DNA of 63,036 bases. Source: a virus. The stretch lies in IMG/VR virus record IMGVR_UViG_3300037504_000923, positions 1 to 63,036 of that record; one strand, 5' to 3'. The position numbers and the translations under genes were made by a program. Shown piece after piece: positions 11,310 through 52,410 of the stretch (its first letter is position 1; the number at the start of each line of letters is the position of its first letter). The notes under the pieces are model-generated. The model worked only from the letters and a program-made list of their open reading frames with translations. It did no database searches and was not told where the DNA came from.

Positions 11310-11756
11310 TTAAACAATAGTTATTCTCGCTTTGCCTCCATGGTCTTGTATCATTTGAACAAGATCCCTTTCGGCTTCTCTACTTCTCCAAATTTGATCT
11401 CCATCCTCATCCTTTTCATATCCAACCAATATACATCCAAGCGAATGAGCTATTCTGTTTCCTGAATGTATCTGAATGTAATCAAAATGATTGACATCTC
11501 TGAGTTGAGGAACCACTCTGCCCCGGGATGGGCTTTCACGTAGGAATATCTCATATATCCCGTATGGAATAGCCGTTTCTCCATACACCTTCTCCTCACC
11601 CGAATCATTCAAATCACCATCTGCATTTAAATCCCTCACCTGATCCTCAAGGGTATGCATGAGGAATTCACCAGTCGTCTTATTGAAAAGTTTACCGTGG
11701 GTGAATTTCTTACCCTCATGCACATTCAACCTAATTAATAATAATTCCAATCCCAT
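11310..11756 (-). CDS. DUF5675-like protein, candidate cell-wall enzyme/endolysin
   Basis: IQIHSGNRIAHSLGCILVG resembles the H.G....S.GC signature of YkuD-like folds and of DUF5675. It sits between membrane proteins. Confidence 0.4.
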   Translation of the reverse strand: MGLELLLIRLNVHEGKKFTHGKLFNKTTGEFLMHTLEDQVRDLNADGDLNDSGEEKVYGETAIPYGIYEIFLRESPSRGRVVPQLRDVNHFDYIQIHSGNRIAHSLGCILVGYEKDEDGDQIWRSREAERDLVQMIQDHGGKARITIV

Positions 11757-11770
11757 AGTTCATTAAGTTT

Positions 11771-12118
11771 TTATTTGTGTAATAAAGGAACTATTGCATT
11801 CCCTCCTCCTCGTGTAATAACTGGGTCATTATCTAATTCATGTAACTCACGGAAATAACGAATATGAGCCGTGTGATTATCAAGACGTTGTTCGTGTGTT
11901 TCAGAAATCTGCTCCAAGTCTGTTATCCTCTTCTGATGATTACTTAACATAATACGCATTGTTATATAACTACCACCGAGCATTAGAATCACACCAGATA
12001 CGACAGTCACGACAATGGCTTTAAACCATTTTTTCAGATGCAATGATTTTTCTACTGCTTGTTTGGAGGATTCATGTATAACCTCCTTCATTAACTTAAT
12101 TTGTTCTTCTGTACTCAT
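11771..12118 (-). CDS. Membrane protein (holin/antiholin candidate)
   Basis: Central TM segment AIVVTVVSGVILMLGGSYITM followed by a coiled-coil segment. Confidence 0.4.
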   Translation of the reverse strand: MSTEEQIKLMKEVIHESSKQAVEKSLHLKKWFKAIVVTVVSGVILMLGGSYITMRIMLSNHQKRITDLEQISETHEQRLDNHTAHIRYFRELHELDNDPVITRGGGNAIVPLLHK

Positions 12119-12119
12119 A

Positions 12120-14849
12120 TTACCAAGCTATTGAGACGTTATCACTAATGTTATTTGTATCACCATCATCCAGAACCTGTAATGAAGCGATTCCATTTGA
12201 AAGTATATAATACATTGTTAATTGAGTTGCCCCGGTTTTTTCGATATATGAAATATTTGCTGTAAAAGAAGTACCATTTGTTTCAAAACCCCCGTTAACA
12301 ATCAACTTATCACCAGTCTTTCCAAAGTAAGGACTTAACTTATCATACCAATCATTTTCATCCTGAGTCGTTGAATTATGCCATGTATCCTGAGCCATGT
12401 GACTGCCTTTGACCGCTGTGGTTATTACTGTATCTTCAACCGTATGATTACCATTAATTCTCATTCCTCCTTGCGTTACATTGACTGAATCTGCCTGTAT
12501 TTCTATAAGTTCATAAGTTGAATTGTCATAGTCATAAGCCTTCATTAGTACAAGATCAAGACTATTTTCCCAACGCAATTCAAGACCTACACCTGTTGAA
12601 GGCACTATTGTTCCATCCACCCGTAACCCGTCAAAATAACTATTGCCATCAAAATCATTACTTCCCGTTCCATTCTGATCAATTTCACCCGATAGAGTTA
12701 TATCTGTTCCTGTAAGAGTATTAGAAAAATTCCCAGTTCCCGAAACATCAAGGGTGTAGCTGGGTGAAGTTTTTCCTATTCCTACGTTGCCCTGAAAATA
12801 AGAATCGCCTGTTCCATCTACTTGGAGGTTGCCATCGGTGATGTTAACGTTGCCTCCACCTAAATTGATTGGTATTCCTCTTATATCTAATCTTTCATAA
12901 TTATTTCCATCTCTGTCATAAGGATATATGACACCATAATTCGATGCTGTATTATATTTTAGTTCTAATCCTGAGCCAGTTGTTGGTACATTTATTGTTC
13001 CATTTATAACTATATTATTGTCTGTTATATTCCCTTGATCCGTCACATTCTGTAGGGTTGACCAAGTTCTTGTAGCTACTCGGTTGTTGTTTTCTCTTAA
13101 ATCAGTTGAAATATTTACATAAGAACCATCGTAAGCCCACTCTGTCATTATTTTAGTGGACGTTCTATTATACATCCATAACTCATTGTTTTCTGGACGG
13201 TGGTATAATTCAAACGAAGCATTATTACCAGCATCAGTCATTTTCAATTGCTGGTAATCCCGCTGAACCCTTATGTAATCTGTTGTTGAATAATCATCAA
13301 GATTTGAAAGTCCTGTATTATGAGGATTTGAAGTATTTGAAAAGTGTGAATAAGAAGATGTAATATAGCCCTGTGATGTTACCCAACTCTGTGTTGCCAT
13401 CGTGTACCAGCTACTCCATACGCCTGTAGATGAATTTCCCTGCCTGAATAATAGATCATTATTACCATCCTGGTTGCCTATTTGCCAAGCATTATCCCCT
13501 CCATCCTGCTCCCATGCAACAATATGGTTTGGGCTTCCTGATATAGATATATCATAGAATCCTGAGTAGGTAAGATTATCCTCCGCTCCGCTGGCAATAT
13601 CCTGTGTCTCAATTTTTGCTGAACTAATACCATTAACCCAATTGCTGCCATCATATCTCAATACCTCCCCGGTGCCCGGAGAAGATACTGAGACATCCCC
13701 CAAATTATCAATTGTTGATCCATCAAAATCATTGGACGAATCCTTATCCCAACCATCAAAAGCCGTCTCATCTCCCGATATATCACTGTCTGTATAATAG
13801 TCATGTTGAGCTGTAGAACCATGGTCAGCATCATTGTTGATCGCTGTCTGTACTTCGCTTTCCGAATCATAAAACCCACTTGTGGTGTTGTCATATAGAC
13901 TTAAATCATCATTGACTACGAAATCTACATTATTACTGACATCATCATACGTGACATTGATAAGAGTTTGCGTTCCGGTAAGAACGTCCCACGCATCATC
14001 CTGTACCTCTTCTTTAGATAACTCCGTGTCCTTGAATTTCACAGTGTTTCCGTTTTCTATTGATAGACTGAAAACTCTATTAGATGAATCAATTGATAAC
14101 GTCTGGTCATCCGTTTCAATAGCCAAAACAGAATCCCTCACATCTGCTTTGAAAATAGGATCCTCTTCTTCAATTCCTCCGCCTCCATGTGTAGTATCTG
14201 GCCAAAGATTTTTCACGAATAATGTATCATTTCGCGTGTAAAAGACACTATCCGAGACAATGATATTACCATTAACCATTAGACGGTGATCATTGTGCAC
14301 ATCCTCAAAATAATAAGGATAACCCCCTACCAATACCCCGGAATGATTAGTAGCAGTATCTGCATATATGACAAGCGGTGGTTCGTCGGCATTTCTAATA
14401 CCAAAACGATAATATTGAAAAAGTGATGCATTCAATCCAGCTCGAACCGGACGAATAACCATATCAGTATTTTTCTGTATATCATTTGATCCTTGAACAA
14501 TTAACCTTCCTCCTAATTGTAGTGAATCAGGCCAGGTTTGATCAATCAAACTTGAATCTTGTATTACATTCGAAATACTATCTCTTATGTCTGCTTTGAA
14601 GTGAGGATCAGTTTCAGTCCCTCCTCCTGCATTCATTAATTTATTTATCCAAATTGAATCGGTGGCAGTCAAAAAAACTGTGTCACCTTGAAAATACACT
14701 GCCAAGGTATCTGCCAAATCAAAACTTATGAAATGCATGGTTCCATAAATTGGTTCATTCTGACTATTTGGAATAGTATCAACCTGCGATTTTACAATAA
14801 AACCCGTAAAAAATAAAAAGATAAATAAAATTAATTTTTTCATAGTCAC
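12120..14849 (-). CDS. Tail fibre / receptor-binding protein with N-terminal signal-like peptide
   Basis: 909 aa, rich in G/N/T/S/D. Contains the tail-fibre motif GNVGIGKTSPSYTLDVSGTGNF and duplicated DP(H/I)FKAD(I/V)RDS segments. The N-terminus is MKKLILFIFLFFTGFIVKSQ. Confidence 0.65.
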   Translation of the reverse strand: MTMKKLILFIFLFFTGFIVKSQVDTIPNSQNEPIYGTMHFISFDLADTLAVYFQGDTVFLTATDSIWINKLMNAGGGTETDPHFKADIRDSISNVIQDSSLIDQTWPDSLQLGGRLIVQGSNDIQKNTDMVIRPVRAGLNASLFQYYRFGIRNADEPPLVIYADTATNHSGVLVGGYPYYFEDVHNDHRLMVNGNIIVSDSVFYTRNDTLFVKNLWPDTTHGGGGIEEEDPIFKADVRDSVLAIETDDQTLSIDSSNRVFSLSIENGNTVKFKDTELSKEEVQDDAWDVLTGTQTLINVTYDDVSNNVDFVVNDDLSLYDNTTSGFYDSESEVQTAINNDADHGSTAQHDYYTDSDISGDETAFDGWDKDSSNDFDGSTIDNLGDVSVSSPGTGEVLRYDGSNWVNGISSAKIETQDIASGAEDNLTYSGFYDISISGSPNHIVAWEQDGGDNAWQIGNQDGNNDLLFRQGNSSTGVWSSWYTMATQSWVTSQGYITSSYSHFSNTSNPHNTGLSNLDDYSTTDYIRVQRDYQQLKMTDAGNNASFELYHRPENNELWMYNRTSTKIMTEWAYDGSYVNISTDLRENNNRVATRTWSTLQNVTDQGNITDNNIVINGTINVPTTGSGLELKYNTASNYGVIYPYDRDGNNYERLDIRGIPINLGGGNVNITDGNLQVDGTGDSYFQGNVGIGKTSPSYTLDVSGTGNFSNTLTGTDITLSGEIDQNGTGSNDFDGNSYFDGLRVDGTIVPSTGVGLELRWENSLDLVLMKAYDYDNSTYELIEIQADSVNVTQGGMRINGNHTVEDTVITTAVKGSHMAQDTWHNSTTQDENDWYDKLSPYFGKTGDKLIVNGGFETNGTSFTANISYIEKTGATQLTMYYILSNGIASLQVLDDGDTNNISDNVSIAW

Positions 14850-22010: not shown

Positions 22011-22451
22011 TTAAGCACCTGATCCACTACCAGAATTCAATACTGGTTTCCCACTAATTTGAATAGTGATGTCAGTAGTTATCTTATCATCTGGTGATAT
22101 TTCAAGTGGCAGTTCTGAAACCAATCCCTCAAACTCCAATGAAGTATTGTCTGCATCGGGCAGTACAATTTCATAATTCTTAACAACGTCTGATTCAAAA
22201 TCAGATTTCATGGTTTCATAAGTATCTCTGCGGAAGTTCATTGAAAGTCCGATTGTACCCGGATTTCTGAACCCTCCAATATACGTACGATAACCACCTG
22301 TTGTGTCAAGGGAAGTTGTTTCGATCATGTCTCTCGACATCGAAGGTCCACTAATTGAGTTTACCTCGGCGATTTTCTCCCAAGCTCCTACTGAACCTCC
22401 TCCGGTCGGATCCCATCTACGAAATTCCGTTCCTTTTCCAGCTACAGCCAT
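22011..22451 (-). CDS. Major tail (tube) protein
   Basis: GTEFRRWDP...WEKIAEVNSISGPSMSRDMIETTSLDT.GGYRTYIGGFRNPGT matches the siphovirus tail tube pattern, and the position fits. Confidence 0.7.
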   Translation of the reverse strand: MAVAGKGTEFRRWDPTGGGSVGAWEKIAEVNSISGPSMSRDMIETTSLDTTGGYRTYIGGFRNPGTIGLSMNFRRDTYETMKSDFESDVVKNYEIVLPDADNTSLEFEGLVSELPLEISPDDKITTDITIQISGKPVLNSGSGSGA

Positions 22452-22872: not shown

Positions 22873-23357
22873 ATCTTTGCCTTATTAGCTATTAATGATA
22901 ACATAACTGCTTGATTGCGTTTCAAAGCTGCCTCAAAAAACTTTGCTCCGGCTCCGGGTCTCTTAAAAGTCACGTCAACCCTCTCATGAACTATTGAGGC
23001 GTAATTGGCAGAAAAACCAAAAATCATAAACGGCTCTCTATGTGTTGAAGCTTCTGCTTTGTACTTTGCTATGACGGATGAATGGTTTGATCTGACTTTA
23101 GAAGCATTATCTCCTTTAAATGATCCTCCTCCCTGACCTACTCCCTTTCCTTTCATAGTAACCACAAACCAGCTCGCCCGTAAATTACCTTCATCAATCG
23201 GAATAAGAGGTGAGGTCTGTTCCATATCTCTTCGCAAATGAATAATAGCATCAATCATCCCTTCGAAGGATCGGTCTTTTATTTTCTTGACTTCCTTATT
23301 CATATTCCGAACGACCTCCTCTATACCTTCCAATCTAAATTGTGGTTTACGTGCCAT
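22869..23357 (-). CDS. HK97 gp10-like head-tail adaptor
   Basis: Synteny, plus N-terminal KPQFRLEGIEEVVRNMNK...AIIHLRRD typical of gp10-family proteins. Confidence 0.45.
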   Translation of the reverse strand: MARKPQFRLEGIEEVVRNMNKEVKKIKDRSFEGMIDAIIHLRRDMEQTSPLIPIDEGNLRASWFVVTMKGKGVGQGGGSFKGDNASKVRSNHSSVIAKYKAEASTHREPFMIFGFSANYASIVHERVDVTFKRPGAGAKFFEAALKRNQAVMLSLIANKAKI

Positions 23358-23365
23358 AATACCTC

Positions 23366-23728
23366 CTATATATAAGCCATTCTGACAAATTCATCAGTCT
23401 TCTTAATCATTGAAGTCTTATCAAATCTACGTATCTGATAAGCTCCATCAACAAGTCTGGGATCACTTTTTTGGGCTGCTGTCAGATCACTCAATGATCC
23501 TTTATACAAATACCCCTCATAATCGACATCCTGTGTCACCAATATCTTTGCTTTACTAACAACTTCTCTTCCCTCATCATCAGTAATGACCTCGGTTTTC
23601 TCATCCCACCTCACGTCTATCTCCACGGCAGTATCAAATGTATAATGACCGTAACCATCATTTTGAGGATTCCCCCAATATACTGCTGTCTCTACACATA
23701 CGGATTGTATAAACTTTTCAATTCCCAT
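23366..23728 (-). CDS. Head closure / head-tail joining protein
   Basis: Synteny only. Confidence 0.35.
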   Translation of the reverse strand: MGIEKFIQSVCVETAVYWGNPQNDGYGHYTFDTAVEIDVRWDEKTEVITDDEGREVVSKAKILVTQDVDYEGYLYKGSLSDLTAAQKSDPRLVDGAYQIRRFDKTSMIKKTDEFVRMAYI

Positions 23729-23730
23729 CG

Positions 23731-24105
23731 TTAGTCGTCTTTAAATGATTTAATTGATTTAAAACTTGCTACTTTTCTACCAAGAGAAGCCAACTTACCA
23801 GTAGTATCCAATTCTCTGACTTGTTGACCGTATGGTGTAGCAGCTAATCCTTCTCCAAATTTCCCGGTATATTCAATTGATGCTCCTCCTGCTCCTTCCT
23901 TCTTTGCCATTCTTTCCCTCGAAGTAGCTATCATGTGAGCAGCCAACCACTTTTCAATTGATGTCAACAAAGTGGATCCGAGGCCTTCATTCGTTAATTG
24001 TTGATCCACCAAAGCACTCGCATCATCAATATAGGCTTCAACGATTCCATCCGTTAAATCCGTGTCAATGATCTTTTTTACTGCTGTAGCTGTTGTACGT
24101 GCCAT
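23731..24105 (-). CDS. Head-tail connector (gp6-like)
   Basis: Synteny, small alpha-helical protein. Confidence 0.4.
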   Translation of the reverse strand: MARTTATAVKKIIDTDLTDGIVEAYIDDASALVDQQLTNEGLGSTLLTSIEKWLAAHMIATSRERMAKKEGAGGASIEYTGKFGEGLAATPYGQQVRELDTTGKLASLGRKVASFKSIKSFKDD

Positions 24106-24118
24106 TTATTTTTCCTCC

Positions 24119-24826
24119 TTACTTTTTACGAGCTTTCCATAATTTCTCATCCACAAATTTCAATGCCTCAGGATTCCATTTTAATCCCAGCCATTCAATC
24201 GTATTCATCAATTGTGTATAATCACCATACACCAACCTCTCAGGCCATACGATTTGAACATTCAATCCCTCAGTTATCATCTCAATAAATCTATTCTCAT
24301 GTTGATGTACCCACCATTTCCATCCATCAGCTTCATTCTGTACATTTACTTTCCTTTGAGCCAACTCATCAGAAAAAGCCCTCATAAATCCTGTTTTGAT
24401 ACAAGAACTAACAATATCACCAGTCCTTCGACGTACAATCACCCACTTGGCATTTGGAAAAGCATGCTGCCATACAGGCCACATCAGACACATCTTCGCT
24501 CCCTTATAAAACCAAGGTCCTCCGTTATATCCTTGCCTTCCAATAACTGAATGAATCATACTCCTCCAATTGTTTGGTATATTCATTGTATGAGGATCAG
24601 GGAGAGGGAATTGTCCCATCGGATCAACTCCTATTTCACGCAGATAGGGTTTAACCACATTATTTCTGATCTCACTATTCTCATACATACCTTTTTTATT
24701 GTTTAAATTCGGACCGGACATTTTTCCACCCCAAGCTCCACAGCGATTTATCATACCCGCTATTAGAGAGGTGCCTGACCTGGCAGCTCCTGTGATTAAT
24801 ATTGGTGATTGTATTTTCTTTTCCAT
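24119..24826 (-). CDS. Sulfotransferase family protein
   Basis: PAPS-binding 5'-PSB-like ILITGAARSGTS and 3'-PB-like VIVRRRTGDIVSS. Confidence 0.65.
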   Translation of the reverse strand: MEKKIQSPILITGAARSGTSLIAGMINRCGAWGGKMSGPNLNNKKGMYENSEIRNNVVKPYLREIGVDPMGQFPLPDPHTMNIPNNWRSMIHSVIGRQGYNGGPWFYKGAKMCLMWPVWQHAFPNAKWVIVRRRTGDIVSSCIKTGFMRAFSDELAQRKVNVQNEADGWKWWVHQHENRFIEMITEGLNVQIVWPERLVYGDYTQLMNTIEWLGLKWNPEALKFVDEKLWKARKK

Positions 24827-24827
24827 T

Positions 24828-25499
24828 TTATCTCCAATTCTCTTTTATCCAGTTAATATTCATTAGTTCATGAGGACGAGGTTTGCCGTGAAAGGATATT
24901 ATCTTTGCTGTATCCGGTAATGTTTCTCCCTGTATGTGTCTTCTATATGAATAATAAGTGTTTGGAAAAAGGTCTTGCCAAAACACTATGTCTTCTTTCA
25001 TCAATATTTCATGATAAGCCGTCCTTTCCGAACCTCCTGATTTCCTTATCAACCAATCCGTTTTCTCAATGAATAACCGCCAAATTCGATCACCAAAACC
25101 AGCATGGAAACTAAGAAGATCACCCCCTATGCCACCATTTGGTTGATTTAGTTTGAATGACCGTCTGCAAATAAAGGGTTCTTTTCTGATCAAATATTCA
25201 TCAATATTCCTAACAATAATCGTATCCAAATCAAATACCACTACCCTTCCTTTTAAATCATAATGAGGATTGAATACTGATAATTTTGGTAGATTTCCTC
25301 GGTATGTAGGAACATCGATTGGTAGAAGATTTATTCCTTCATCAAATCCTTTTCGATCAGTTATACAAAAGAATTTGAATTTCAGACATGTTCTCCTTTT
25401 CAGCATCCTATACAAATTATTTACATATTGAATACTAAGTTCCCTATCTCCAGCGGGCCAATTACCCCATAACGTGCATACAATATTTAACTGTGCCAT
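24828..25499 (-). CDS. Putative GT-A fold glycosyltransferase (DxD)
   Basis: Rossmann-like N-terminus IVCTLWG and VVVFDLDTIIV (DxD motif). Confidence 0.4.
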   Translation of the reverse strand: MAQLNIVCTLWGNWPAGDRELSIQYVNNLYRMLKRRTCLKFKFFCITDRKGFDEGINLLPIDVPTYRGNLPKLSVFNPHYDLKGRVVVFDLDTIIVRNIDEYLIRKEPFICRRSFKLNQPNGGIGGDLLSFHAGFGDRIWRLFIEKTDWLIRKSGGSERTAYHEILMKEDIVFWQDLFPNTYYSYRRHIQGETLPDTAKIISFHGKPRPHELMNINWIKENWR

Positions 25500-26149
25500 A
25501 ATTTTGGATTTATTGTCATTTTATACATATCAGGATTGAACGCCAATCCACATTTCTCAATGAATTTTTTAGCTTTCTTTTCACTATCAATCAAATCCTG
25601 TGAACGTATCCAAATATAATTATTGGTTTGTTGAGGAATATAATCCTGTATTATATTCAAATGATACACCATTCGTCTAACATAATCCACTGGATCACTC
25701 TCGTTTTTCAATCTTCTTTCCCAAACTTTATGTCTTAATATAGATTCCCTGACCTTGGTTTTATCCCGGTATGGTAGAATCCATGTTGCTTCGGGAAAAG
25801 CCTTCATCATTATTTCAGTTATAAGCAATAACTTTGTGTCTTTGAATAACCACAAGTCCTCGTTCCCTATAGCCTGTAAAATCTCTTCTCTCAGTCCATC
25901 ATATTTACTTACCATATTTTTATTGATAACACTAAACACACCATCCGCACGTGCTGGAATGTTATTGGTTTTCAATACCTGTTTCACTATATCAACTATA
26001 TGACGGTTTTCATAATATCCCATCTCATTATACTCATCAGGTTCACCACACTCACCAACCCATACTCCGTGTGCTTCCAATAATGCTGCAATCATTGAAG
26101 TACCGGATCTTGGAGGTGCTGCAATTAAATATTCTTTTTGTAACCCCAT
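25487..26149 (-). CDS. Sulfotransferase family protein
   Basis: YLIAAPPRSGTSMIAALL (5'-PSB) and ILPYRDKTKVRES (3'-PB-like). Confidence 0.65.
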   Translation of the reverse strand: MGLQKEYLIAAPPRSGTSMIAALLEAHGVWVGECGEPDEYNEMGYYENRHIVDIVKQVLKTNNIPARADGVFSVINKNMVSKYDGLREEILQAIGNEDLWLFKDTKLLLITEIMMKAFPEATWILPYRDKTKVRESILRHKVWERRLKNESDPVDYVRRMVYHLNIIQDYIPQQTNNYIWIRSQDLIDSEKKAKKFIEKCGLAFNPDMYKMTINPKLWHS

Positions 26150-26685
26150 AATGGTTTAACTTTTACGATTAATTCCCTTTCTTCCCATCCTCTTCCTTCT
26201 AATTCCTGAACTTCAAAACGTTTCTTCAATTCATCCATCCACCATTCTCTACTGCGGATTAATACATGAGCATTTCTACCATCCGGGAGGATGTGTTTTC
26301 GAGCCGGTCCAAGACAGATCGTGAAAAATCCACCTTTCCTCATATACTCCCTCAATTCATTCAACACATTTTCAATATACTCAGGTTCTACATGTTCCAA
26401 TACATCCGTACAAACAATGAAATCAAACTTCCCAACTGGTTTATCTGATTTCTCAGGTATAGCGGGATCATATTCTTGTACCCTAAATCCTTTATTTTTC
26501 AAACGAGCAGCCAAAATCCCTTTCCCTGCTCCATAATCCAACACGTACTTGGATCCGGTATCATCTATCAACTTAGATACAAGACCAAGCCATTTTTTAC
26601 CCGAACGACCCCATCCCGATCGACGCCTGTGATGTTCCATATTTAATTCTTTATACTCTTCAGATATTGTCTTTGTCATAACCAA
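26125..26685 (-). CDS. Class I SAM-dependent methyltransferase
   Basis: Motif I VLDYGAGKG, acidic loop VQEYDP, motif post-II/III FDFIVCTDVLEHV. Confidence 0.75.
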   Translation of the reverse strand: MVMTKTISEEYKELNMEHHRRRSGWGRSGKKWLGLVSKLIDDTGSKYVLDYGAGKGILAARLKNKGFRVQEYDPAIPEKSDKPVGKFDFIVCTDVLEHVEPEYIENVLNELREYMRKGGFFTICLGPARKHILPDGRNAHVLIRSREWWMDELKKRFEVQELEGRGWEERELIVKVKPLWGYKKNI

Positions 26686-27239
26686 TTTATTTTAGTTGCT
26701 TTTTCCTCGGCCAACCTTTCAATCAATTCTTTTTCTCCTTGCCAATCATGCGTATTCTGAACTCTCTTCTCATTGAGCCAGCGTTCCATCTCTTTTGGAT
26801 GATGGTTTTTGTTATATTCTCCGTTTTGTATAGCATCAAATCCAGCCAAATTAATACATTCAGGAGTGTATAAATATAGAGCAATAAGAAAAGACGCTGC
26901 TCCTCTGCTCAAATGATGTTCTTTGAGTTTTGGTATATGATAATGTATATAAGGGTTTACAATCCGAGTATGTTTCCCATTCATCTTATAACTTTTTCGA
27001 TGGGATTCTGAAATCATATAATGCCAATATTCTTTTCGTGGTATAGGACAACTGAGCAGGTATTTATGAGAAGGTCCTGAAGTGAAAACAATAATATCAG
27101 ACCTCTTTCCATAATCCTTTTCATTTTGCCACGCACAATCACTCATTCTAATAACACACTCATGCTCATCAATGAATTTTCCAAGCGCTTTCCCTTCAAG
27201 ACTCGGACCATGACCTACTATACATACAGTATCAATCAT
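26676..27239 (-). CDS. Sialyltransferase-like (GT42 / DUF115 Maf-like) transferase
   Basis: VCIVGHGPSLEG...VIRMSDC resembles the Cst-II/Maf N-terminal IIAGNGPSL...VFRCN pattern. Confidence 0.4.
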   Translation of the reverse strand: MIDTVCIVGHGPSLEGKALGKFIDEHECVIRMSDCAWQNEKDYGKRSDIIVFTSGPSHKYLLSCPIPRKEYWHYMISESHRKSYKMNGKHTRIVNPYIHYHIPKLKEHHLSRGAASFLIALYLYTPECINLAGFDAIQNGEYNKNHHPKEMERWLNEKRVQNTHDWQGEKELIERLAEEKATKINWL

Positions 27240-27940
27240 AACACATCCTCCAATTTAACTTTCTTTAATTCAGTGATGGAACTGTCAGGGCTACAATTCA
27301 ATATCTCAATTCCTAACTTCTTTGCATGCCTTGCAATATCAGCAAAGCCTTTTAAATGACCATTAAAAGGTAATTTGATCATGCTCCCTTTCACATTACC
27401 ACTTCCTCCCTTTCTGTATTCACTATGCCAGTGCTGTTTGTTTTCTATTAATTTCATATCAAATCCTAACAAAGTGATTCGTTTCACACCCAAATGATAA
27501 GCCAATGATATTGCAGCCGCTCCGCTATTACCATTCCATGACACTGTTTTTGGATTGGTACTTATACCTTTTGATTTATGATGATCCCGTTCTAAATACT
27601 TAATAGACGGATAATATTCTTTTGAAGCAAATTTATTGTGGCAACTGACTTTAACACCGGGATAATATAATAATGGTGTTTTATGTTGTAAGAAGAATTT
27701 ATGATCTCCAAAAAATACAAAATCCATCCAATCACCAAGTTTATAAGCCGCGTTGACACCAATGACATGTTTGTTATAAATGGGTGAGAAGTATGGAGAG
27801 TAAATGGAAGGAGATTCACTTCCTTCCAAAACTTTCTTTGTTATTGCTTGAGGAATATTGAATACTTTGGTGATAGAACTTCCACCACCAATAATAAAAC
27901 ACTCTCCATCCTTCCATAATTTAGGGACCACCCATTTCAT
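27236..27940 (-). CDS. DUF115/Maf-like or related glycosyltransferase
   Basis: ECFIIGGGSSI, VIGVNAAY and DFVFFGD show the same architecture as the upstream gene. Confidence 0.35.
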   Translation of the reverse strand: MKWVVPKLWKDGECFIIGGGSSITKVFNIPQAITKKVLEGSESPSIYSPYFSPIYNKHVIGVNAAYKLGDWMDFVFFGDHKFFLQHKTPLLYYPGVKVSCHNKFASKEYYPSIKYLERDHHKSKGISTNPKTVSWNGNSGAAAISLAYHLGVKRITLLGFDMKLIENKQHWHSEYRKGGSGNVKGSMIKLPFNGHLKGFADIARHAKKLGIEILNCSPDSSITELKKVKLEDVL

Positions 27941-27943
27941 ACA

Positions 27944-28522
27944 TTATTCCTCTTCTAACATTTCAAGCATTTTATCCTGAAGTACATCGAATTCCATTTC
28001 TTTCAATTTGTCAAATGACTCATCTCCCAAGTCATCCACAAACTCAAAAAATTCTTCATTTTCCTTAATCAGTTCAATGAGGTCATCCATAGACTCTGCG
28101 TCATTTGTCTTTTCAACGAGTCCATGTTTATTCTCATCATCCTGTCCTTTGATAATTGTACTAACAACAACTCCACCAAGGTCGTTAACCATCTTCTCTG
28201 CCTGTTTCTTGGTGATCGCTTTCTCACTGACCTGCTTCTTATTGTTAGCATCCAATATGTTATAATAATTGGATTTGGGAGTCGTTCTCTCAAGGATGTA
28301 CTCCGGTTCACTACCTTTAGGTATCTGCTTTTCAGCAGTCTCACCCGGGACAGTGTCAATAGGAGTGATTTGATCTCTGAATGATTGAGGAATGTCCTCG
28401 GGACGTGAGTAAAACACCTGATTTGGTTTGATTATATTACCACGAGAGTCACGAAAAGTACCTCCTCCATTCTTCTTCCATCTGATTTCACCTTCATTCT
28501 TATCTTTCTGTCTTTTCATCAC
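27944..28522 (-). CDS. Hypothetical acidic protein
   Basis: 192-aa ORF downstream of the capsid gene terminator. Confidence 0.5.
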   Translation of the reverse strand: MMKRQKDKNEGEIRWKKNGGGTFRDSRGNIIKPNQVFYSRPEDIPQSFRDQITPIDTVPGETAEKQIPKGSEPEYILERTTPKSNYYNILDANNKKQVSEKAITKKQAEKMVNDLGGVVVSTIIKGQDDENKHGLVEKTNDAESMDDLIELIKENEEFFEFVDDLGDESFDKLKEMEFDVLQDKMLEMLEEE

Positions 28523-28537
28523 GTTTGATTTAAATTA

Positions 28538-28575
28538 GAAAAAAAGAAAAAAGTGTCACTATGGTTAAGTGACCC
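28538..28575 (-). terminator. Rho-independent terminator downstream of the major capsid gene
   Basis: Minus strand reads GGTCACT-taaccat-AGTGAC followed by ACTTTTTTCTTTTTTT. Confidence 0.55.
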
Positions 28576-28589
28576 CTTTCATCATATAT

Positions 28590-29705
28590 TTACGCCAAAT
28601 GAGCAATACCACATTTGTTGTTCTGATCAGAACGAATCTGAGGAACTTGAATGGTCATGACTTTGTAATCAGTAACCATATTACCCTGTGATTGCCATTC
28701 TACGTTAGTAAGACCCATACCACGTACCAAACGAACCACATCATTTGTCATCTGGACAAGTAACACGTTGTCATCAGGTAAGAAATCCACAACCTTCACA
28801 TCTGTGATGTTATTCAATTGAAGGATTCTTTCTCTGATAGTATTGTTTTTATAGACATTATAGTCTTTGTCCATCAGAGTTTCATAGTTGGTTGGTACAT
28901 ACAGTGTATAAGGTCCATAGTAATGAGCATTCAATAATGATTGCTTCATACTCTGCACATCATCGATAATCTGTTCACCTACTGACTGAGTAGAAGTCGC
29001 AGAAAGATCATCCCAGTTAGTTGACAGAGTTACCTGATTACGGTGTGGGTAATTCAAATAAGAATATATAGTTCCTCCACCGTAAGCTTTAGTAATGTCA
29101 GTGAATAACATCTTTTCCAAGTACTCTCTTACTTTACGGGCAGCCCTTTCTGCCAATGTGGTGTCAATAGGATTACCACTATTTCTACTCGCGTCCAATG
29201 CCCTCATATTGATTGTATAATCAACGTGAATAATAGGCAGAGGTAAGTAGTTGGTTTCATAGTTAGGACGATCATTATTGGCTCTGGAAATACCATCCAT
29301 GGTTAATTCAGCCTCCAGTGCATCACTGACATCATGCCATTCGAGTACTGTAGTTCCCATACCATTACCGAGATCATAAGTCAGTCCTTTACTGATCAGA
29401 TCATCCACTCCACCAAGTCTTTGTTCAACAATTTTCAAAACTACATCATCCAATTGCTTCCATTCGTCACGCCTCAGCGTGGCATTGGTTTGAATTGGAA
29501 CAACTCGATAATTTTTCAAATCATTTGGATCACTACCCGGTCCTCCTACATATACAGATACAACAGGACCAAGGTCTTTGTCGAGATATGGACGCATTAC
29601 ACCGGGATCCATCCGGTTATTCGCAAGAAGCCGTGAGTTAGCAAACTGACCATTCACCGCTCCCCCTTTTCCAATGAAATCCATATTTATATTCATATTA
29701 CTCAT
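28590..29705 (-). CDS. Major capsid protein (HK97 fold, encapsulin-like family)
   Basis: 371 aa. Position follows the decoration/scaffold genes, and RRDEWKQLDDVVLKIVEQRLGGVDDLISKGLTYDLGNGMGTTVLEWHDVSD is typical of this capsid/encapsulin family. Confidence 0.8.
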   Translation of the reverse strand: MSNMNINMDFIGKGGAVNGQFANSRLLANNRMDPGVMRPYLDKDLGPVVSVYVGGPGSDPNDLKNYRVVPIQTNATLRRDEWKQLDDVVLKIVEQRLGGVDDLISKGLTYDLGNGMGTTVLEWHDVSDALEAELTMDGISRANNDRPNYETNYLPLPIIHVDYTINMRALDASRNSGNPIDTTLAERAARKVREYLEKMLFTDITKAYGGGTIYSYLNYPHRNQVTLSTNWDDLSATSTQSVGEQIIDDVQSMKQSLLNAHYYGPYTLYVPTNYETLMDKDYNVYKNNTIRERILQLNNITDVKVVDFLPDDNVLLVQMTNDVVRLVRGMGLTNVEWQSQGNMVTDYKVMTIQVPQIRSDQNNKCGIAHLA

Positions 29706-29719
29706 CTTTTCCTCCTTTC

Positions 29720-30220
29720 TTATACAATTCTTACAATTAATCTTTGATTACCTTGCAGACCACTGGATTCAGCAGCAGAAGATGCTGAAAGATCGAGGTC
29801 TTCAAGTGCTTGGGCAACAATCTGGTTGGTGTAGAATGAATTTACATTCCCTGAAGAATCTGTTCCAATTGATTCTTTATCAGGTACATGTTTCTTCAAA
29901 TAACCATTACCATCGGATTCCAAGAAATCTCCTTTAGAAACATCCTCACCATCTGCCAAAATAGCATATACTTTATCCCCTCGTTGAGGGATCCAGACCT
30001 TCACAGGGTCTCCTGAATCATAATCATCATCAATTCCATTGCCTTGCTCCTCATCCTCGAAAGCAAACATCGGAATCATATTCTGTCCAGCGTTTGAATG
30101 CGCTTGTACCTTACCCGCGCTGGTAAGCTCAATAAGCATACCGGGAGTAATAGCAGCTGCCGCATCATATTCATCAAACACCTTCAGATTATCCAATATT
30201 CTTACACTATGATAAGCCAT
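29720..30220 (-). CDS. DUF2190-like head decoration protein
   Basis: PGMLIELTSAGKVQAH...GDPVKVWIPQRGDKVYAIL...KGDFLESDGNG follows the DUF2190 pattern, immediately upstream of the capsid gene. Confidence 0.55.
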   Translation of the reverse strand: MAYHSVRILDNLKVFDEYDAAAAITPGMLIELTSAGKVQAHSNAGQNMIPMFAFEDEEQGNGIDDDYDSGDPVKVWIPQRGDKVYAILADGEDVSKGDFLESDGNGYLKKHVPDKESIGTDSSGNVNSFYTNQIVAQALEDLDLSASSAAESSGLQGNQRLIVRIV

Positions 30221-49669: not shown

Positions 49670-50023
49670 ATGTATGAAATCAGAAAACAATTCCATTTTA
49701 GTGCGTCTCACGTACTGTATGAATTACCAAAAGGTCACCCGTGCGGGAGATTGCATGGTCACAACTACATCGTAGAATTAATACTACGATCAGAGAACTT
49801 AAACAGTGAAGGATTTGTAGTTGACTACGGTCAATTGAAACAGATTAAACAATGGATTGATGAAACTTTCGACCATCAACACCTAAACGACAAAATGAAC
49901 GTGAATCCAACGGCTGAAAACATTGCGAAATTAATCTATGACAGATGGGTACATTATTATCCACTGCATGGTGTGAAAGTCAAAGAAACTGAAAAAACGG
50001 AGGCAACTTATTATGGAAGTTAA
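49670..50023 (+). CDS. queD: 6-carboxy-5,6,7,8-tetrahydropterin synthase
   Basis: FHFSASHVL...GHPCGRLHGHNY...FDHQHLN are PTPS/QueD signatures. Confidence 0.9.
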   Translation: MYEIRKQFHFSASHVLYELPKGHPCGRLHGHNYIVELILRSENLNSEGFVVDYGQLKQIKQWIDETFDHQHLNDKMNVNPTAENIAKLIYDRWVHYYPLHGVKVKETEKTEATYYGS

Positions 50024-50780
50024 AACGATTATTGAAGCCCGGCCGGATTTCAAAAAAGACATCCCACCAGGTACGAATGATTTCCTTGAGGTAGCAGAGT
50101 TTTTCTGTGACACAATTCAAGGAGAAGGAGTAAATACAGGCGTTCCGGCTACGTTTCTCAGGATGCAACATTGTACTCAAAACTGTGTTTGGTGTGATAC
50201 TCAGGAAGTATGGAGGTATGGAAATCCTTATACTTTTGATGAGTTATTTGAATTGATTGAAAAATATGGAGTAGCAGGAAAATTGATGGAGGGTCAGCAT
50301 CTGGTATTAACAGGAGGCTCTCCATTGAAACAACAATCCCGACTTATCAATTTTCTGCATAAATTCATGGAGGTATTCGATTTCAAACCGCATATAGAAA
50401 TTGAAAACGAATGTACCTTGATGCCTTCAAAAGACATGATTGAATTAGTCGATACGTGGAATAATTCTCCAAAACTTGAGAATTCAGGCAATTTGAGAAT
50501 ATTGCGCTATCAACCTGAAATCCTCAGAAAATTATCTTCCCTGACAAACTCATGGTTTAAATTTGTTATCAGCAGTGAAAAAGAGTGGAAAGAGATTGAG
50601 GATGATTTCTTAGAACCAGAACTCATAGCACCAGAGCAAATAATACTCATGCCAGTCGGAGCAGACCGTAAAGAATTAGAACAAAACAGGGAGTCCGTAG
50701 TAGATATGGCTATTCAAAATAACGTCCGTTATACCACTCGCGAACATATTGTACTTTGGGATAAGAAAACCGGAGTGTAA
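50013..50780 (+). CDS. queE: 7-carboxy-7-deazaguanine synthase (radical SAM)
   Basis: FLRMQHCTQNCVWCDT is a Cx3CxxC-type radical SAM cluster in QueE context, plus LVLTGGSPL. Confidence 0.85.
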   Translation: MEVKTIIEARPDFKKDIPPGTNDFLEVAEFFCDTIQGEGVNTGVPATFLRMQHCTQNCVWCDTQEVWRYGNPYTFDELFELIEKYGVAGKLMEGQHLVLTGGSPLKQQSRLINFLHKFMEVFDFKPHIEIENECTLMPSKDMIELVDTWNNSPKLENSGNLRILRYQPEILRKLSSLTNSWFKFVISSEKEWKEIEDDFLEPELIAPEQIILMPVGADRKELEQNRESVVDMAIQNNVRYTTREHIVLWDKKTGV

Positions 50781-50785
50781 ATTTT

Positions 50786-50796
50786 TTTGTATAATA
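50786..50796 (+). promoter_or_regulatory. Conserved 11-mer TTTGTATAATA, copy 5
   Basis: Exact 11-mer after the queE stop, preceded by a T-run. Confidence 0.5.
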
Positions 50797-50827
50797 AATT
50801 AAAGTTTAATCAAAACAATTAAGAAAA

Positions 50828-51700
50828 ATGAAAACAAAAGATTTAAAGGAAGCAGCAAAGGAACTTAATGAAGTTCTACAACCTGAAGAAGGTGATGAGA
50901 TAAAAGTAAACCAATCTCATGAAAAAATCCTTGACAAAGTGAAAGAAGCAATGTATGTGCTTGAAAGTGCTGATTCTGAAGAATTATCAGAATCAACCAT
51001 TGAAGTACTTCATGAAATCGCCGTTGAAAATTACGAGGAATTTGAAGAAGCGGAAAATGATGCCGAGGAACCTTGTGTTGATGTCTTCAAAAACATCGGT
51101 ATTTTAACTGATAAAGATTTTGAAGAAGAAGAGCCTGAGGAGCCTGAGGAAGAAGAAGAGCCTGAGGAAGAAGAAGAGCCTGAGGAAGAAGAAGAGCCTG
51201 AGGAAGAAGAAGATATTGATTTGGCTTATATCGTTGATGGGATGACAAAACTCAAGGACCTCAAAGGACTTGTACAGGAAAGGGATGAATTTGAAGAGCT
51301 ACGAGATGAACTCGGCAAATACCGAAAGACTGCAGACTTAAAAGCAGTCATGATGGAAATGGTTAAAGAAGAACCCGAACCCGAATCTGAGAAAAAGGAA
51401 AAACCTGCTAAAGAAGCAAAAGGTAAATCATCCACAAAGAAGACTGGGAAGAAGGAAGCTCCTAAAAAAGCGAAAGGAAAATCAGGAAAAGGAGTTATTG
51501 CTACAATCACAGAATGCATTGAAGATTCTGGTAAAAAGGGAATTTCAAAAGAACAGATTTTTGAAAAACTGAAAAAAGAATTCCCTGATAGAAATGAAGA
51601 TTCCATGAAAAATACTATTGGAGTTCAAGTTCCCGGACGCATCAATAAAGAAAAATTTGAAATTGAAAAACTTGAAAACGGAAATTACAGAAAAAAATGA
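50828..51700 (+). CDS. Highly acidic repeat protein with conserved basic C-terminal domain
   Basis: EEPEEPEEEEEPEEEEEPEEEEEPEEEED encoded by an 18-bp tandem repeat. C-terminus: KGVIATITECIEDSGKKGISKEQIFEKLKKEFPDRNEDSMKNTIGVQVPGRINKEKFEIEKLENGNYRKK. Confidence 0.65.
   Translation: MKTKDLKEAAKELNEVLQPEEGDEIKVNQSHEKILDKVKEAMYVLESADSEELSESTIEVLHEIAVENYEEFEEAENDAEEPCVDVFKNIGILTDKDFEEEEPEEPEEEEEPEEEEEPEEEEEPEEEEDIDLAYIVDGMTKLKDLKGLVQERDEFEELRDELGKYRKTADLKAVMMEMVKEEPEPESEKKEKPAKEAKGKSSTKKTGKKEAPKKAKGKSGKGVIATITECIEDSGKKGISKEQIFEKLKKEFPDRNEDSMKNTIGVQVPGRINKEKFEIEKLENGNYRKK
51122..51213 (+). repeat. 18-bp tandem repeat gaagaagaagagcctgag (about 4-5 copies)
   Basis: Read directly from the sequence; encodes the (E)nPE repeats. 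Confidence 0.85.
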
Positions 51701-52410
51701 AAAAAGTAGTTTTAGGATTATCAGGAGGAATGGATTCTGCGACCTTGCTCGGTTATTTTATCGGGCAAGGTTTTGACAGCATTCATTGCTGTTCGTATAT
51801 GTATGGATCAAAACATAATGATTATGAGCTTGCAGCGGCTGGGAAGATTATTCAGTATTACAATGATTTTACTGCTGATCAACTAAATAAATCAATAGAT
51901 CGAATTACTACTGTCCATCATCACATTTTTGATATTAGAAATATATTTACAAATATACAATCAAATTTGATGCAATCAGGAGGAGAAATACCCGAAGGGC
52001 ATTACGAAGAAAAAAACATGAAAAAAACAGTAGTACCGGGTAGGAATTTAATTTTTGCTTCCATCATGGCATCTGTCGCTGAATCAGAAGGAGCAGAAAA
52101 AATAGCTCTTGGAGTACATTCAGGAGATCATCATATTTATCCAGATTGTCGTCCTGCTTTCATTGATAGATTAACGGAAACTATTCATCAAAGTACAGAT
52201 GGAAAGGTAGAAGTAATAGCTCCTTTTACAGATTTTGATAAAACAGAAATCTTAAAGTTAGGATATTCATTAAATCCACAGGTTCCCTATCACTTGACAC
52301 GAACCTGCTACAAAAACCAACCAATTTCCTGTGGTAAATGTGGCAGTTGTAATGAAAGATTAGAAGCATTTCAGATGATTAACAAAAAAGATCCTATCCA
52401 ATATGAATGA
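51697..52410 (+). CDS. queC: 7-cyano-7-deazaguanine (preQ0) synthase
   Basis: LGLSGGMDSATLL PP-loop, VVPGRN, and C-terminal zinc cysteines CYKNQPISCGKCGSC. Confidence 0.9.
   Translation: MKKVVLGLSGGMDSATLLGYFIGQGFDSIHCCSYMYGSKHNDYELAAAGKIIQYYNDFTADQLNKSIDRITTVHHHIFDIRNIFTNIQSNLMQSGGEIPEGHYEEKNMKKTVVPGRNLIFASIMASVAESEGAEKIALGVHSGDHHIYPDCRPAFIDRLTETIHQSTDGKVEVIAPFTDFDKTEILKLGYSLNPQVPYHLTRTCYKNQPISCGKCGSCNERLEAFQMINKKDPIQYE

Follow-up and report, generated by a model that had tools for sequence, protein, structure and literature searches.

A variable island of predicted glycosyl-, methyl- and sulfotransferase genes in the structural operon of a 63 kb phage

Why should a phage carry six transferase genes between its capsid and connector genes, and what do the enzymes modify? 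The window analysed here, a stretch of 63,036 nucleotides, is a complete phage genome of 63 kb. Six co-oriented and overlapping minus-strand ORFs, A to F (27940-24119), are flanked in it by the major capsid gene and a DUF4054 connector gene (Table 1); next come the tail terminator gene and the gene of a tail tube protein of lambda-like type. Overlaps are 4 nt for A/B, 10 nt for B/C, 25 nt for C/D and 13 nt for D/E, and a gap of 1 nt lies between E and F. The six-gene run described in the first-pass annotation was recovered within the same limits, every motif quoted there was found in the ORF translations, and its six family guesses all hold in profile or structure tests (Pfam, PHROG, PDB profiles, Foldseek). 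The run is clearly not a product of chance, since dozens of related contigs carry such genes at the same slot. From the analyses below it appears on balance probable that the genes form a late, low-expressed cassette which glycosylates, methylates and sulfates virion proteins. Because the set of enzymes at this slot differs from relative to relative, the island most likely gives the virion a glycan coat that is acidic and variable.

Table 1. Features of the island and its surroundings
Feature	Position	Strand	Characteristics
g166, at decoration-protein position	29720-30220		
Candidate acceptor: acidic Ser-rich loop of g166	29762..29788	-	S145-S153, DLSASSAAESSG, near C-terminus; from C-terminus alignment
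Major capsid protein gene, upstream of the island	28590-29705		DUF6260/Linocin_M18
Terminator-like hairpin with U-rich tract	28537..28573	-	GGUCAC...GUGAC; in the 67-nt gap after the major capsid gene
g192, small acidic protein	27944..28522	-	192 aa; between capsid gene and A
A, CstII/MptE-like (GT42-like fold) transferase	27236..27940	-	234 aa; IIGGGSS
B, short GT29 (sialyltransferase family) protein	26676..27239	-	187 aa; GHGPSL
C, class I SAM-dependent methyltransferase	26125..26685	-	186 aa; TTG start; VLDYGAGKG
D, PAPS-type sulfotransferase, second subfamily	25487..26149	-	220 aa; APPRSGTS, YRDKTKVRES
E, GT8-like (GT-A fold, DxD) glycosyltransferase	24828..25499	-	223 aa; FDLDT
F, PAPS-type sulfotransferase	24119..24826	-	235 aa; GAARSGTS, RRRTGDIVSS
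DUF4054 connector gene, downstream	23731-24105		beyond the F end of the island
Candidate acceptor: Ser/Gly tail at the C-terminus of the tail tube protein	22011..22037	-	NSGSGSGA and stop; gene 22011-22451, lambda-like

Protein A matched PHROG 4603 (E 3.8e-32) and reached 22.6 bits with the MptE-like Pfam profile, under the cut-off of 34.6; several of its homologues carry PF01973. Foldseek searches with its AF2 model (pLDDT 89) returned CstII (E 1e-4, TM 0.48) and the HPPK MptE (E 6e-4) as best matches, the structural match to CstII being modest. Among relatives, no enzyme of the slot is better conserved than A, which is also the only one present in the minimal versions of the slot, and hhalign connected A to gp8 of phage PMG1 (99.4%) and PmgO of P1 (99.3%). 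B scored 53.3 bits with PF00777 (cut-off 23). It is rare, with a homologue only in L016 among 24 clustered loci and no match in deposited phages; its family comprises 268 cluster representatives (50% identity) among 1.84 billion proteins, mostly of 180-220 aa. C was assigned by Methyltransf_23 (53.6 bits) and PHROG 24759 (E 1.1e-23), and E by PHROG 1962 (E 1.9e-19). The E family, in which the DLD motif aspartate is invariant, matched in the PDB Skp1 alpha-galactosyltransferase (6.5e-8), a GT8 enzyme, glycogenin and LgtC, and hhalign related E to P1 PmgQ (99.9%). All six island enzymes are predicted to be soluble and basic. Soluble glycosyltransferases may also act on lipid-linked host intermediates, which counts against a virion target.

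For F, the Sulfotransfer_3 score was 27.3 bits, with a cut-off of 27, and its profile detected TPST1/2 in the PDB at 1e-6. With the AF2 model (pLDDT 93.4), tyrosylprotein sulfotransferases were on top of the Foldseek results (E 1e-5, TM 0.56-0.61), followed by Stf9/Stf1 and SULTs. D, which is 24-27% identical to F in two alignments, scored slightly below the same cut-off (25.1 bits) and retains the residues R16/G18 and R133/S141 (F numbering) that are invariant in the F family. Sulfotransferases had been regarded as unusual in this position. In this phage clade they are the rule, being present at the slot in 18 of 24 relatives and usually encoded at the very end of the island, ahead of the connector gene. 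The family was not found in 50,697 deposited phage records; in metagenomes it is represented by 1378 protein clusters (90% identity). An APS kinase gene accompanies the sulfotransferase gene in four loci and lies directly upstream of it in L053/L054, an order shown by gene calls in one contig. This neighbourhood supports PAPS-dependent sulfation.

The slot is conserved in the 24 fully covered relatives, where it is confined to one strand, is about 100% coding and varies in length from 0.27 to 8.7 kb. Sister islands specify glycosyltransferases of GT2, GT8, GT11, GT25, GT47-like and DXD types, sugar-nucleotide enzymes (GDP-mannose-dehydratase/epimerase, RmlD-type), O- and C-methyltransferases (FkbM and TylF among them), a TupA ATP-grasp protein and APS kinase. 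L034 and L035 harbor glycosyltransferase-methyltransferase-glycosyltransferase fusions. Different cassettes are found even in phages whose capsid proteins are 93-95% identical. Such fast turnover between close relatives, resembling that of O-antigen loci, suggests a coat under diversifying selection, which might for instance shield the particle, keep it from attaching to debris or non-hosts, or help it escape recognition. Of 155 island ORFs, none contains two or more hydrophobic segments, and thus no flippase, polymerase or initiating phosphoglycosyltransferase appears to be encoded. The host phylum is probably Bacteroidota, to which MAG bins point.

Directly before the enzyme genes, all 24 related loci contain a member of the g192 family, as judged from clustering and a family alignment. 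No significant Pfam or PHROG match was obtained for g192, and its gene has no Shine-Dalgarno site. Its N-terminal module of about 50 aa also heads large multidomain glycosyltransferases in relatives, fused there to Capsule_synth, GT8 and methyltransferase domains, and g192 may therefore dock the enzymes to their target.

A terminator after the capsid gene had also been proposed. The gap does contain a hairpin with a 6-bp stem and, after it, a U-rich tract (28573-28555, by pattern scan and sequence), with a predicted fold of -12 kcal/mol (z = -2.0), and a terminator is annotated at the equivalent position in PMG1. Taken alone, the hairpin is a weak indication of a terminator: terminator-like sites were not in excess over chance in the scanned region (12 found, 10.1 expected), and it precedes the 192-aa ORF rather than the island. 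The late, low expression postulated for the island fared better, being supported by its position in the late structural operon and by Shine-Dalgarno sequences that are weak or absent, compared with AAGGAGG at neighbouring structural genes. This difference, along with the overlapping genes, argues for low and coupled expression.

Two virion proteins offer candidate acceptor segments. Among fully covered loci, all 19 with A (homologues counted at 44% identity or more) encode a tail tube protein that ends in a Ser/Gly tail, and none of seven without A does; the tail tube proteins of PMG1 and S20 have no such tail. The Ser-rich loop of g166, a protein with no Pfam match, is shared by 20 of 25 loci that have A and by none of seven that lack it. 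These co-occurrences are correlations among related sequences, and shared ancestry could be their cause.

The gene families with their folds, a slot that is conserved yet variable in content, the lack of membrane proteins and the patterns of co-occurrence are observations; acceptor, donors, order of steps and biological role are predicted in the following scheme. The low-copy enzymes would act inside the infected cell, where A would transfer a first sugar, probably a CMP-activated acidic one such as a nonulosonic acid or Kdo, onto exposed Ser/Thr-rich segments of virion proteins, with the tail tube tail and the g166 loop as candidates. B (GT29-like) and E (GT8-like) would extend the glycan, C would O-methylate it, and D and F would add sulfate from PAPS. 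CMP-sugar, UDP/NDP-sugar, SAM and PAPS would, for this genome, all be supplied by the host. We infer a sulfated and methylated virion glycan, a view strengthened by the genomic context.

The same enzymes could instead modify precursors of host LPS, capsule or exopolysaccharide during infection, for example to block superinfection or to keep progeny from adhering to lysed cells, comparable to the seroconversion caused by temperate phages. Enzymes of these families are commonly encoded in O-antigen and capsule loci, the quick cassette turnover is like that of surface-polysaccharide loci, and soluble glycosyltransferases normally use undecaprenyl-linked intermediates at the inner membrane face. 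Nevertheless, this appears unlikely, considering that ORFs resembling polytopic membrane proteins are missing from the 155 examined, that the slot in the late head-to-tail operon is the same throughout the clade and is found again in PMG1, that the P1 homologues of A and E are likewise part of a late operon, that late expression leaves little time to alter a surface, and that loci with A tend to encode virion proteins with Ser-rich segments. Rather unlikely, too, is that F, D or both sulfate a side chain of a virion protein without any glycan. Tyrosylprotein sulfotransferases are the closest solved relatives by profile and fold, the sulfotransferase gene usually stands last ahead of the connector genes, and L030, L037 and L057 have sulfotransferases without a glycosyltransferase. 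In L030 and L037 only a sulfotransferase follows g192, which glycan decoration does not explain unless the glycan is host-derived or the enzyme acts on protein directly. The TPST match is limited, though, to a TM of about 0.6 and 17-20% identity, with the carbohydrate and glycolipid sulfotransferases Stf9 and Stf1 ranking close behind, and the fold does not fix the acceptor. Moreover, the g192 family alignment revealed no conserved acidic Tyr motif, a conserved Tyr/Phe being located in variable context, and in most loci glycosyltransferases accompany the sulfotransferase.

The genes might also be a mixed set of morons or auxiliary metabolic genes that share no target and merely occupy a permissive intergenic site. 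This would agree with viromics papers in which sulfotransferases of phages are listed as auxiliary metabolic genes whose function is unclear (PMC10580990, PMC8290583). We consider it very improbable in view of the functional coherence of dozens of islands, the joint recurrence of A and E in the S20 record, Xanthomonas jumbo phages and P1, and the pairing of APS kinase with sulfotransferase. Transfer of sugars to modified bases of phage DNA, finally, is hardly credible. The genome does encode a preQ0/7-deazaguanine pathway, and phage glycosyltransferases are known by which DNA is hypermodified (Pyle 2024, as cited in PMC12619734). Against this, the island resides among the structural genes, a long way from those for replication and the Que pathway (about 50-53 kb), the P1 counterparts of A and E belong to a late operon annotated as putatively morphogenetic, and PMG1 carries A between capsid and adaptor genes. 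DNA sulfation, to our knowledge, has not been described.

Modification of virion proteins, the preferred reading, can be compared with several known systems. F shares with TPST1/2 and mycobacterial Stf proteins the PAPS-binding 5'-PSB loop (RSGTS) and the conserved 3'-PB Arg/Ser; unlike TPSTs, it is soluble, comprises only 235 aa and has no membrane anchor. Maf enzymes place CMP-activated nonulosonic acids directly on Ser/Thr of a polymerising structural protein, which is the mechanism proposed for A. A belongs to the fold class of Maf (DUF115/MptE-like) and the GT42 sialyltransferase CstII, but its sequence similarity to Maf is marginal, as seen in the Pfam score, and it has half the size of typical Maf proteins. 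Chlorovirus PBCV-1 uses its own soluble cytoplasmic glycosyltransferases and a sugar methyltransferase to produce a methylated capsid glycan, for which we know of no sulfation. Its A064R is a multidomain glycosyltransferase-methyltransferase, comparable to the fusions in L034 and L035, but PBCV-1 is a eukaryotic giant virus and its genes are not gathered in one slot of a structural operon.

Closer in arrangement are P1 and the Pseudomonas phage PMG1. In PMG1 the capsid gene is followed by a terminator, a small ORF, gp8 (annotated as similar to D3 Orf7) and then the head-tail adaptor, and in P1 pmgO and pmgQ are non-essential genes of a late-promoter operon. PmgO and gp8 are homologous to A and PmgQ to E, whereas sulfotransferases, GT29 and a methyltransferase are missing from the slot in these minimal versions. 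Annotations of the three range from 'putative morphogenetic function' to 'alpha-2,3-sialyltransferase', the latter by PHROG transfer. The record named Tetraselmis viridis virus S20 has an island of nine genes, placed two genes past the protease and immediately ahead of the head closure gene. Capsid-adjacent glycosyltransferases had been taken as documented in some phages; in a cluster F1 mycobacteriophage the genes are near the 3' end of the genome, not beside the capsid gene (PMC11256854). The island differs from mycobacteriophages also in its sialyltransferase-like, GT8-like and sulfotransferase families, in its hypervariable content, in the APS kinase of sister islands and probably in host phylum. 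As in mycobacteriophages of the Che8, Corndog and Myrna type, the glycosyltransferases are phage-encoded; theirs decorate virion proteins, and here such a role is read from the genes. According to Freeman 2023 as cited in PMC12619734, mycobacteriophage glycans are carried by the C-terminal ends of capsid and tail tube subunits, and it is the C-terminal Ser/Gly tail of the tail tube protein that co-occurs with A here.

The six overlapping ORFs proposed in the first-pass annotation as a sulfo-, glycosyl- and methyltransferase island are present on the minus strand within the claimed limits, and every motif quoted for them was found in the sequence of the window. Successive genes, designated A to F from the capsid side to the connector side, overlap by 4, 10, 25, and 13 nt, and E and F are separated by a single nucleotide. 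Genes for a tail terminator and a tape measure protein are also located downstream of the island. A terminator behind the capsid gene had been reported as well. The post-capsid gap (28573-28537) does contain a hairpin with a 6-bp stem and a long U-rich tract, but it is weak (z = -2.0) and precedes g192, the small ORF next to the capsid gene, rather than the island.

Features of the island and its surroundings and of related genes in other records
Source	Feature	Position	Strand	Remarks
Window	A	27940-27236	-	ORF
Window	B	27239-26676	-	ORF
Window	C	26685-26125	-	ORF
Window	D	26149-25487	-	ORF
Window	E	25499-24828	-	ORF
Window	F	24826-24119	-	ORF
Window	Major capsid protein	28590-29705		upstream of island; DUF6260/Linocin_M18, HK97-type
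Window	g192	27944-28522		upstream of A; 192-aa ORF without family assignment
Window	DUF4054 connector-type protein	23731-24105		downstream of island
Window	Lambda-like tail tube protein	22011-22451		downstream, beyond DUF4054
Window	QueE-like radical SAM protein	50013-50780	+	preQ0/7-deazaguanine cluster 49670-52987
Window	QueC	51697-52410	+	preQ0/7-deazaguanine cluster 49670-52987
Window	GTP cyclohydrolase I	52403-52987	+	preQ0/7-deazaguanine cluster 49670-52987
P1, L105 (NC_005856)	pmgO	79592-80254
P1, L105 (NC_005856)	pmgQ	81449-82150
L013	g192 module and KpsC/S-like Capsule_synth	12514-14631		g192 module: W-K-x-GGGSLR...IIKPGQxFxAxPxEIP
L035	g192 module, GT8 and methyltransferase domains	12286-14640
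L049	g192 module	12181-13122		protein without Pfam match

An exact terminal direct repeat of 127 bp (1-127 and 62910-63036) marks the window as a complete genome that closes into a circle of about 62.9 kb; a RecA-like ORF spans the junction of its ends. No tRNA genes are present in the window, and at the DNA level the region 23000-30000 has no match among 50,697 deposited phage records. The host probably belongs to the Bacteroidota, on the weak evidence that relatives were binned with MAGs of Bacteroidales, Balneolales, Bacteroidota, and Cyclobacteriaceae. The plus-strand block 37299-62566 specifies DNA polymerase A, a DnaB-like helicase, UDG, a SNF2 helicase, and RuvC. A Sigma-70 region 2 domain occurs in another protein of this block, its exact ORF not being mapped, so that middle or late transcription may be served by a phage-encoded sigma factor. 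The Que cluster listed in the table probably makes a 7-deazaguanine DNA modification, and a PTPS/QueD match was obtained among the plus-strand ORFs, its position not being mapped.

Two of the island proteins had been described as PAPS-type sulfotransferases. F passes the cut-off of Pfam Sulfotransfer_3 (PF13469; 27.3 versus 27 bits), as do many F homologues according to precomputed matches, and D stays just under it (25.1 bits) and aligns with the F family. In an alignment of 21 members including D, R16, G18, R133, and S141 are invariant and S17 is nearly so. R16/G18 and R133/S141 align with the PRSGTT loop and the R...S motif of tyrosylprotein sulfotransferases (TPSTs), and the 5'-phosphosulfate-binding loop (xxRSGT[ST]) and the 3'-phosphate-binding Arg...Ser are present in both F and D. 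TPSTs also rank first when the F-family profile is compared with the PDB (1e-6). The AF2 model of F (pLDDT 93.4) exhibits the sulfotransferase alpha/beta fold, and all 15 PDB matches obtained with Foldseek at E <= 0.001 are sulfotransferases, headed by TPST1/2 and the tick TPST (E ~1e-5, TM 0.56-0.61) and followed by mycobacterial Stf9 and Stf1. TPSTs are closest to F by structure, yet with a TM of only ~0.6. By their sequences, F and D are classified as PAPS-dependent sulfotransferases, and this type of sulfation has good contextual support from APS kinase genes in related islands. With tblastn, F and D found no counterpart in the 50,697 deposited phage records. BFVD holds other viral sulfotransferases, for example from Synechococcus phage S-SCSM1, and the role of such enzymes was termed unclear in the viromics literature (PMC10580990). 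The F family comprises 1378 metagenomic protein clusters at 90% identity, none of them informatively named.

For A, described before as sialyltransferase- or Maf-like, the picture is mixed. It matches PHROG 4603 ('alpha-2,3-sialyltransferase') with an E-value of 3.8e-32, and the structures nearest to its AF2 model (pLDDT 89) are CstII, a GT42 sialyltransferase (Foldseek E 1e-4, probability 1.0, TM 0.48), and the archaeal MptE kinase (MptE HPPK, E 6e-4). With Pfam PF01973, however, A scores 22.6 bits and remains below the cut-off of 34.6, and the A profile reaches MptE in the PDB only at E 0.09. Because of this MptE-like Pfam score below the cut-off, A was classed as superfamily-like only and assigned to neither GT42 nor Maf. 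A HWH motif is conserved in A. Its family contains 658 metagenomic protein clusters (90% identity), again without an informative name. That A, through its MptE-like fold, might be connected with the pterin-type Que enzymes was considered and rejected in view of the location of A in the structural operon and of its homologue in phage PMG1, which retains the slot between capsid and adaptor genes.

B was confirmed as sialyltransferase-like by Pfam PF00777 (GT29; 53.3 bits versus a cut-off of 23), its residues 6-84 covering profile positions 58-139, the CMP-sugar-binding sialyl-motif L region; B homologues carry PF00777 as well. Motifs S and VS were recognized by eye only. B has 187 aa versus ~270 aa for a full-length GT29 catalytic domain, and its family is small, with 268 cluster representatives in 1.84 billion proteins, mostly of 180-220 aa. 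With B, too, tblastn gave no match in the 50,697 deposited phage records. C contains VLDYGAGKG and matches Methyltransf_23 with 53.6 bits (cut-off 27), as expected for the proposed class I SAM methyltransferase. E, a glycosyltransferase candidate on account of its DxD motif, has no Pfam match itself, but its family profile matches GT8-type retaining enzymes, including Skp1 alpha-GalT (6.5e-8), a GT8 enzyme (2e-4), glycogenin, and LgtC. The family keeps D92 of its DLD motif without exception, and one protein of a sister island matches Glyco_transf_8. PDB searches with the single sequences of A, B, D, and F yielded nothing useful, and family profiles were required there. Five of the six proteins were without a match in NCBIfam. 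All six are soluble and basic, with a maximum 19-residue Kyte-Doolittle hydropathy of at most 1.27.

Searches with the capsid protein revealed 52 IMG/VR loci at 45-60% identity. In the 24 loci covering both flanks, the slot between the capsid and DUF4054 genes varies from 267 bp to 8.7 kb, and its genes always share one strand and fill it almost completely. Clustering detected the g192 family in all 24 loci, A in 21, the sulfotransferase family in 18, where it is usually the final gene ahead of DUF4054, and E in 12. B and C are restricted to the window and one other clustered locus (L016). The other genes form a toolkit for glycans. Sister islands specify glycosyltransferases of the GT11 fucosyltransferase, GT2, GT25, GT47-like, DXD, GT9-like, and KpsC/S-like types, the sugar-nucleotide enzymes NAD epimerase/GDP-mannose dehydratase and RmlD, methyltransferases (FkbM, TylF, C-methyltransferases), TupA ATP-grasp, a radical SAM enzyme, the short-chain dehydrogenase adh_short, and transketolase halves. 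Glycosyltransferase and sulfotransferase domains each occur fused to methyltransferase domains. APS kinase genes are present in four related islands (L008, L021, L053, and L054), in L053 and L054 immediately upstream of the sulfotransferase gene. Among loci with capsid proteins 93-95% identical (L006, L013, and L049), one, six, and four genes follow g192. Cassette turnover is much faster than that of the flanks, and at such capsid identity it points to selection acting on the exterior of the particle.

Some islands are of unusual composition. L042 (5068-8706) and L053 (1-7226) contain split transketolase halves, a Zn-dependent alcohol dehydrogenase, and adh_short, L053 additionally a PfkB kinase and DUF268; such a combination resembles a pathway leading to an unusual branched or higher-carbon sugar. 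In L008, a third kind of sulfotransferase (Sulfotransfer_3/Sulfotransfer_1) is fused to Methyltransf_24 (11747-12949), beside D-type and F-type sulfotransferases and the APS kinase.

The N-terminal module of g192, about 50 aa, heads large multidomain glycosyltransferases in L013 and L035 and a protein without Pfam match in L049. Its recurrence on multidomain glycosyltransferases ties g192 to the enzyme system and suggests that it is perhaps a docking or targeting module. No homology was detected between g192 and the small post-capsid ORFs of PMG1 and the S20 record (hhalign probability 0.1). As a substrate for tyrosine sulfation g192 was rejected: a conserved acidic Tyr motif was not found in it, and the conserved Tyr/Phe lies in variable, not consistently acidic, surroundings.

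Counterparts also exist in cultured phages. Homologues of A, 25-28% identical, were found in 75 deposited records. Pseudomonas phage PMG1 has its capsid gene followed by an annotated terminator, a small ORF, gp8, and the head-tail adaptor; gp8, annotated as similar to D3 Orf7, is an A homologue (hhalign 99.4%), which thus occupies the same slot as in the window. In P1, PmgO is homologous to A (99.3%) and PmgQ to E (99.9%) according to hhalign. Both are annotated with a 'putative morphogenetic function', and their genes are located in the operon of the late promoter LPpmgL together with the Ser/Thr phosphatase gene ppp. A genome-wide CRISPRi screen of P1 found pmgO and pmgQ non-essential (PMC10695390). 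The Xanthomonas jumbo phages XacN1 and Xoo-sp13 carry A and E homologues ~1.4 kb apart. A nine-gene island was detected in the siphovirus-like genome of 'Tetraselmis viridis virus S20' (NC_020840; L063/L065), where it is followed immediately by the head closure gene and lies two genes beyond the protease gene. It consists of two A-like genes, two glycosyltransferase genes, one of them an E homologue, a methyltransferase gene, and four unknowns. The record was deposited as an algal virus; it shows a terminase, portal, protease, and tail layout and is classified under Caudoviricetes, and S20 is probably a bacteriophage from the algal culture.

The signals for translation differ along the operon. 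Canonical AAGGAGG sites are found for the scaffold-region gene, the gene for g166 (29720-30220), which is in the position of a decoration protein beside the capsid gene, and the capsid, DUF4054, and tail tube genes. g192 is without a Shine-Dalgarno site, and the island genes have weak sites or none and are translationally coupled, which fits enzymes made late in catalytic, not stoichiometric, amounts. Scanning for sigma-70 promoters gave 36 sites versus 48.7 expected; the likely Bacteroidota host would use other promoters.

Two virion proteins are candidate acceptors, judged from their sequences. At its C-terminus, the tail tube protein carries a Ser/Gly tail (NSGSGSGA). All 19 fully covered loci whose A homologue is at least 44% identical have a comparable one; seven loci without A have none. 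An acidic Ser-rich loop (S145-S153 in the window) before the last strand of g166 is shared by 20 of the 25 A-containing loci and by none of seven that lack A; both co-occurrences are correlations among related sequences. The Ser/Gly tail is absent from the tail tube proteins of PMG1 and S20. In four loci with sulfotransferase-only slots (L030, L037, L038, and L057), the tail tube protein has ~225 instead of ~140 aa, an extra C-terminal domain replacing the Ser/Gly tail.

A late cassette glycosylating virion proteins is the best-supported model, to which we give somewhat better than even chances. Indirect evidence for such glycosylation comes from the place of the island in the structural operon, the solubility of its enzymes, and the Ser-rich candidate acceptors that co-occur with A. 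A would start the glycan; it is the sole enzyme of the minimal slots of L006 and PMG1, and the A of L012 carries a fused GT2 domain. Extension of the glycan would fall to B and E, methylation to C, and sulfation to D and F, with every donor supplied by the host. The 39 plus-strand ORFs located beyond the structural operon (25 of the 26 families listed) revealed no NeuA/NeuB, APS kinase, or ATP sulfurylase, and ten other structural-operon proteins scanned likewise gave no donor-synthesis enzyme. Remodelling of the host surface by the island enzymes, the other role envisaged at first, is rather unlikely: the position in the structural operon is fixed, and membrane components are absent. None of the 155 island ORFs of the relatives has two or more hydrophobic segments, so that flippases, polymerases, and initiating phosphoglycosyltransferases are missing from the islands. 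Integral membrane components as in seroconversion or host O-antigen modification modules of the gtrABC/Oac type (flippase, membrane glycosyltransferase, or acyltransferase) were found neither among these ORFs nor among the six proteins of the window.

Direct sulfation of proteins by TPST-like enzymes would agree with the sulfotransferase-only islands of L030, L037, and L057, and is given a similarly low, slightly smaller chance as the general explanation. That the island is a set of unrelated auxiliary genes seems very improbable, and hypermodification of DNA by its products still more so. Glycosylation of the virion may be developed further, tentatively, into a 'virion serotype locus', in which a fast-evolving cassette would give the tail tube protein and the decoration proteins of the head a coat of acidic (sialic-acid- or Kdo-like), methylated and sulfated glycan, and sulfotransferase-only variants would sulfate protein directly in the manner of TPSTs. 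If so, the first sulfated virion of a prokaryotic virus would be at hand, and the unexplained genes pmgO and pmgQ of P1 and orf7 of D3 would obtain a function. Homologues of A and E in P1 and of A in D3/PMG1 make the hypothesis testable at once in classical, tractable phages. Confirmation would bear on phage ecology (stickiness, grazing, decay) and on immune recognition of therapeutic phages, and would provide a source of new protein-glycosylating and protein-sulfating enzymes; the clade carrying these islands consists of abundant, uncultured phages.

Glycosylation of phage virions is already known, and the system in the window is no new category. To our knowledge, experiments have so far demonstrated virion glycosylation by phage enzymes in no more than a few mycobacteriophages. 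New are the fixed capsid-to-connector slot with its O-antigen-like hypervariability, the proposed role of sialyltransferase-like enzymes in initiation, the predicted methylation and sulfation (some relatives also have APS kinase), the metagenomic abundance of the F and A families, and homologues among the unexplained genes of P1 and D3/PMG1. Together they suggest that virion glycosylation is far commoner and chemically richer than so far shown. PMC12619734 places glycans at the C-termini of capsid and tail tube subunits of mycobacteriophages, and the candidate acceptors of the window parallel this arrangement.
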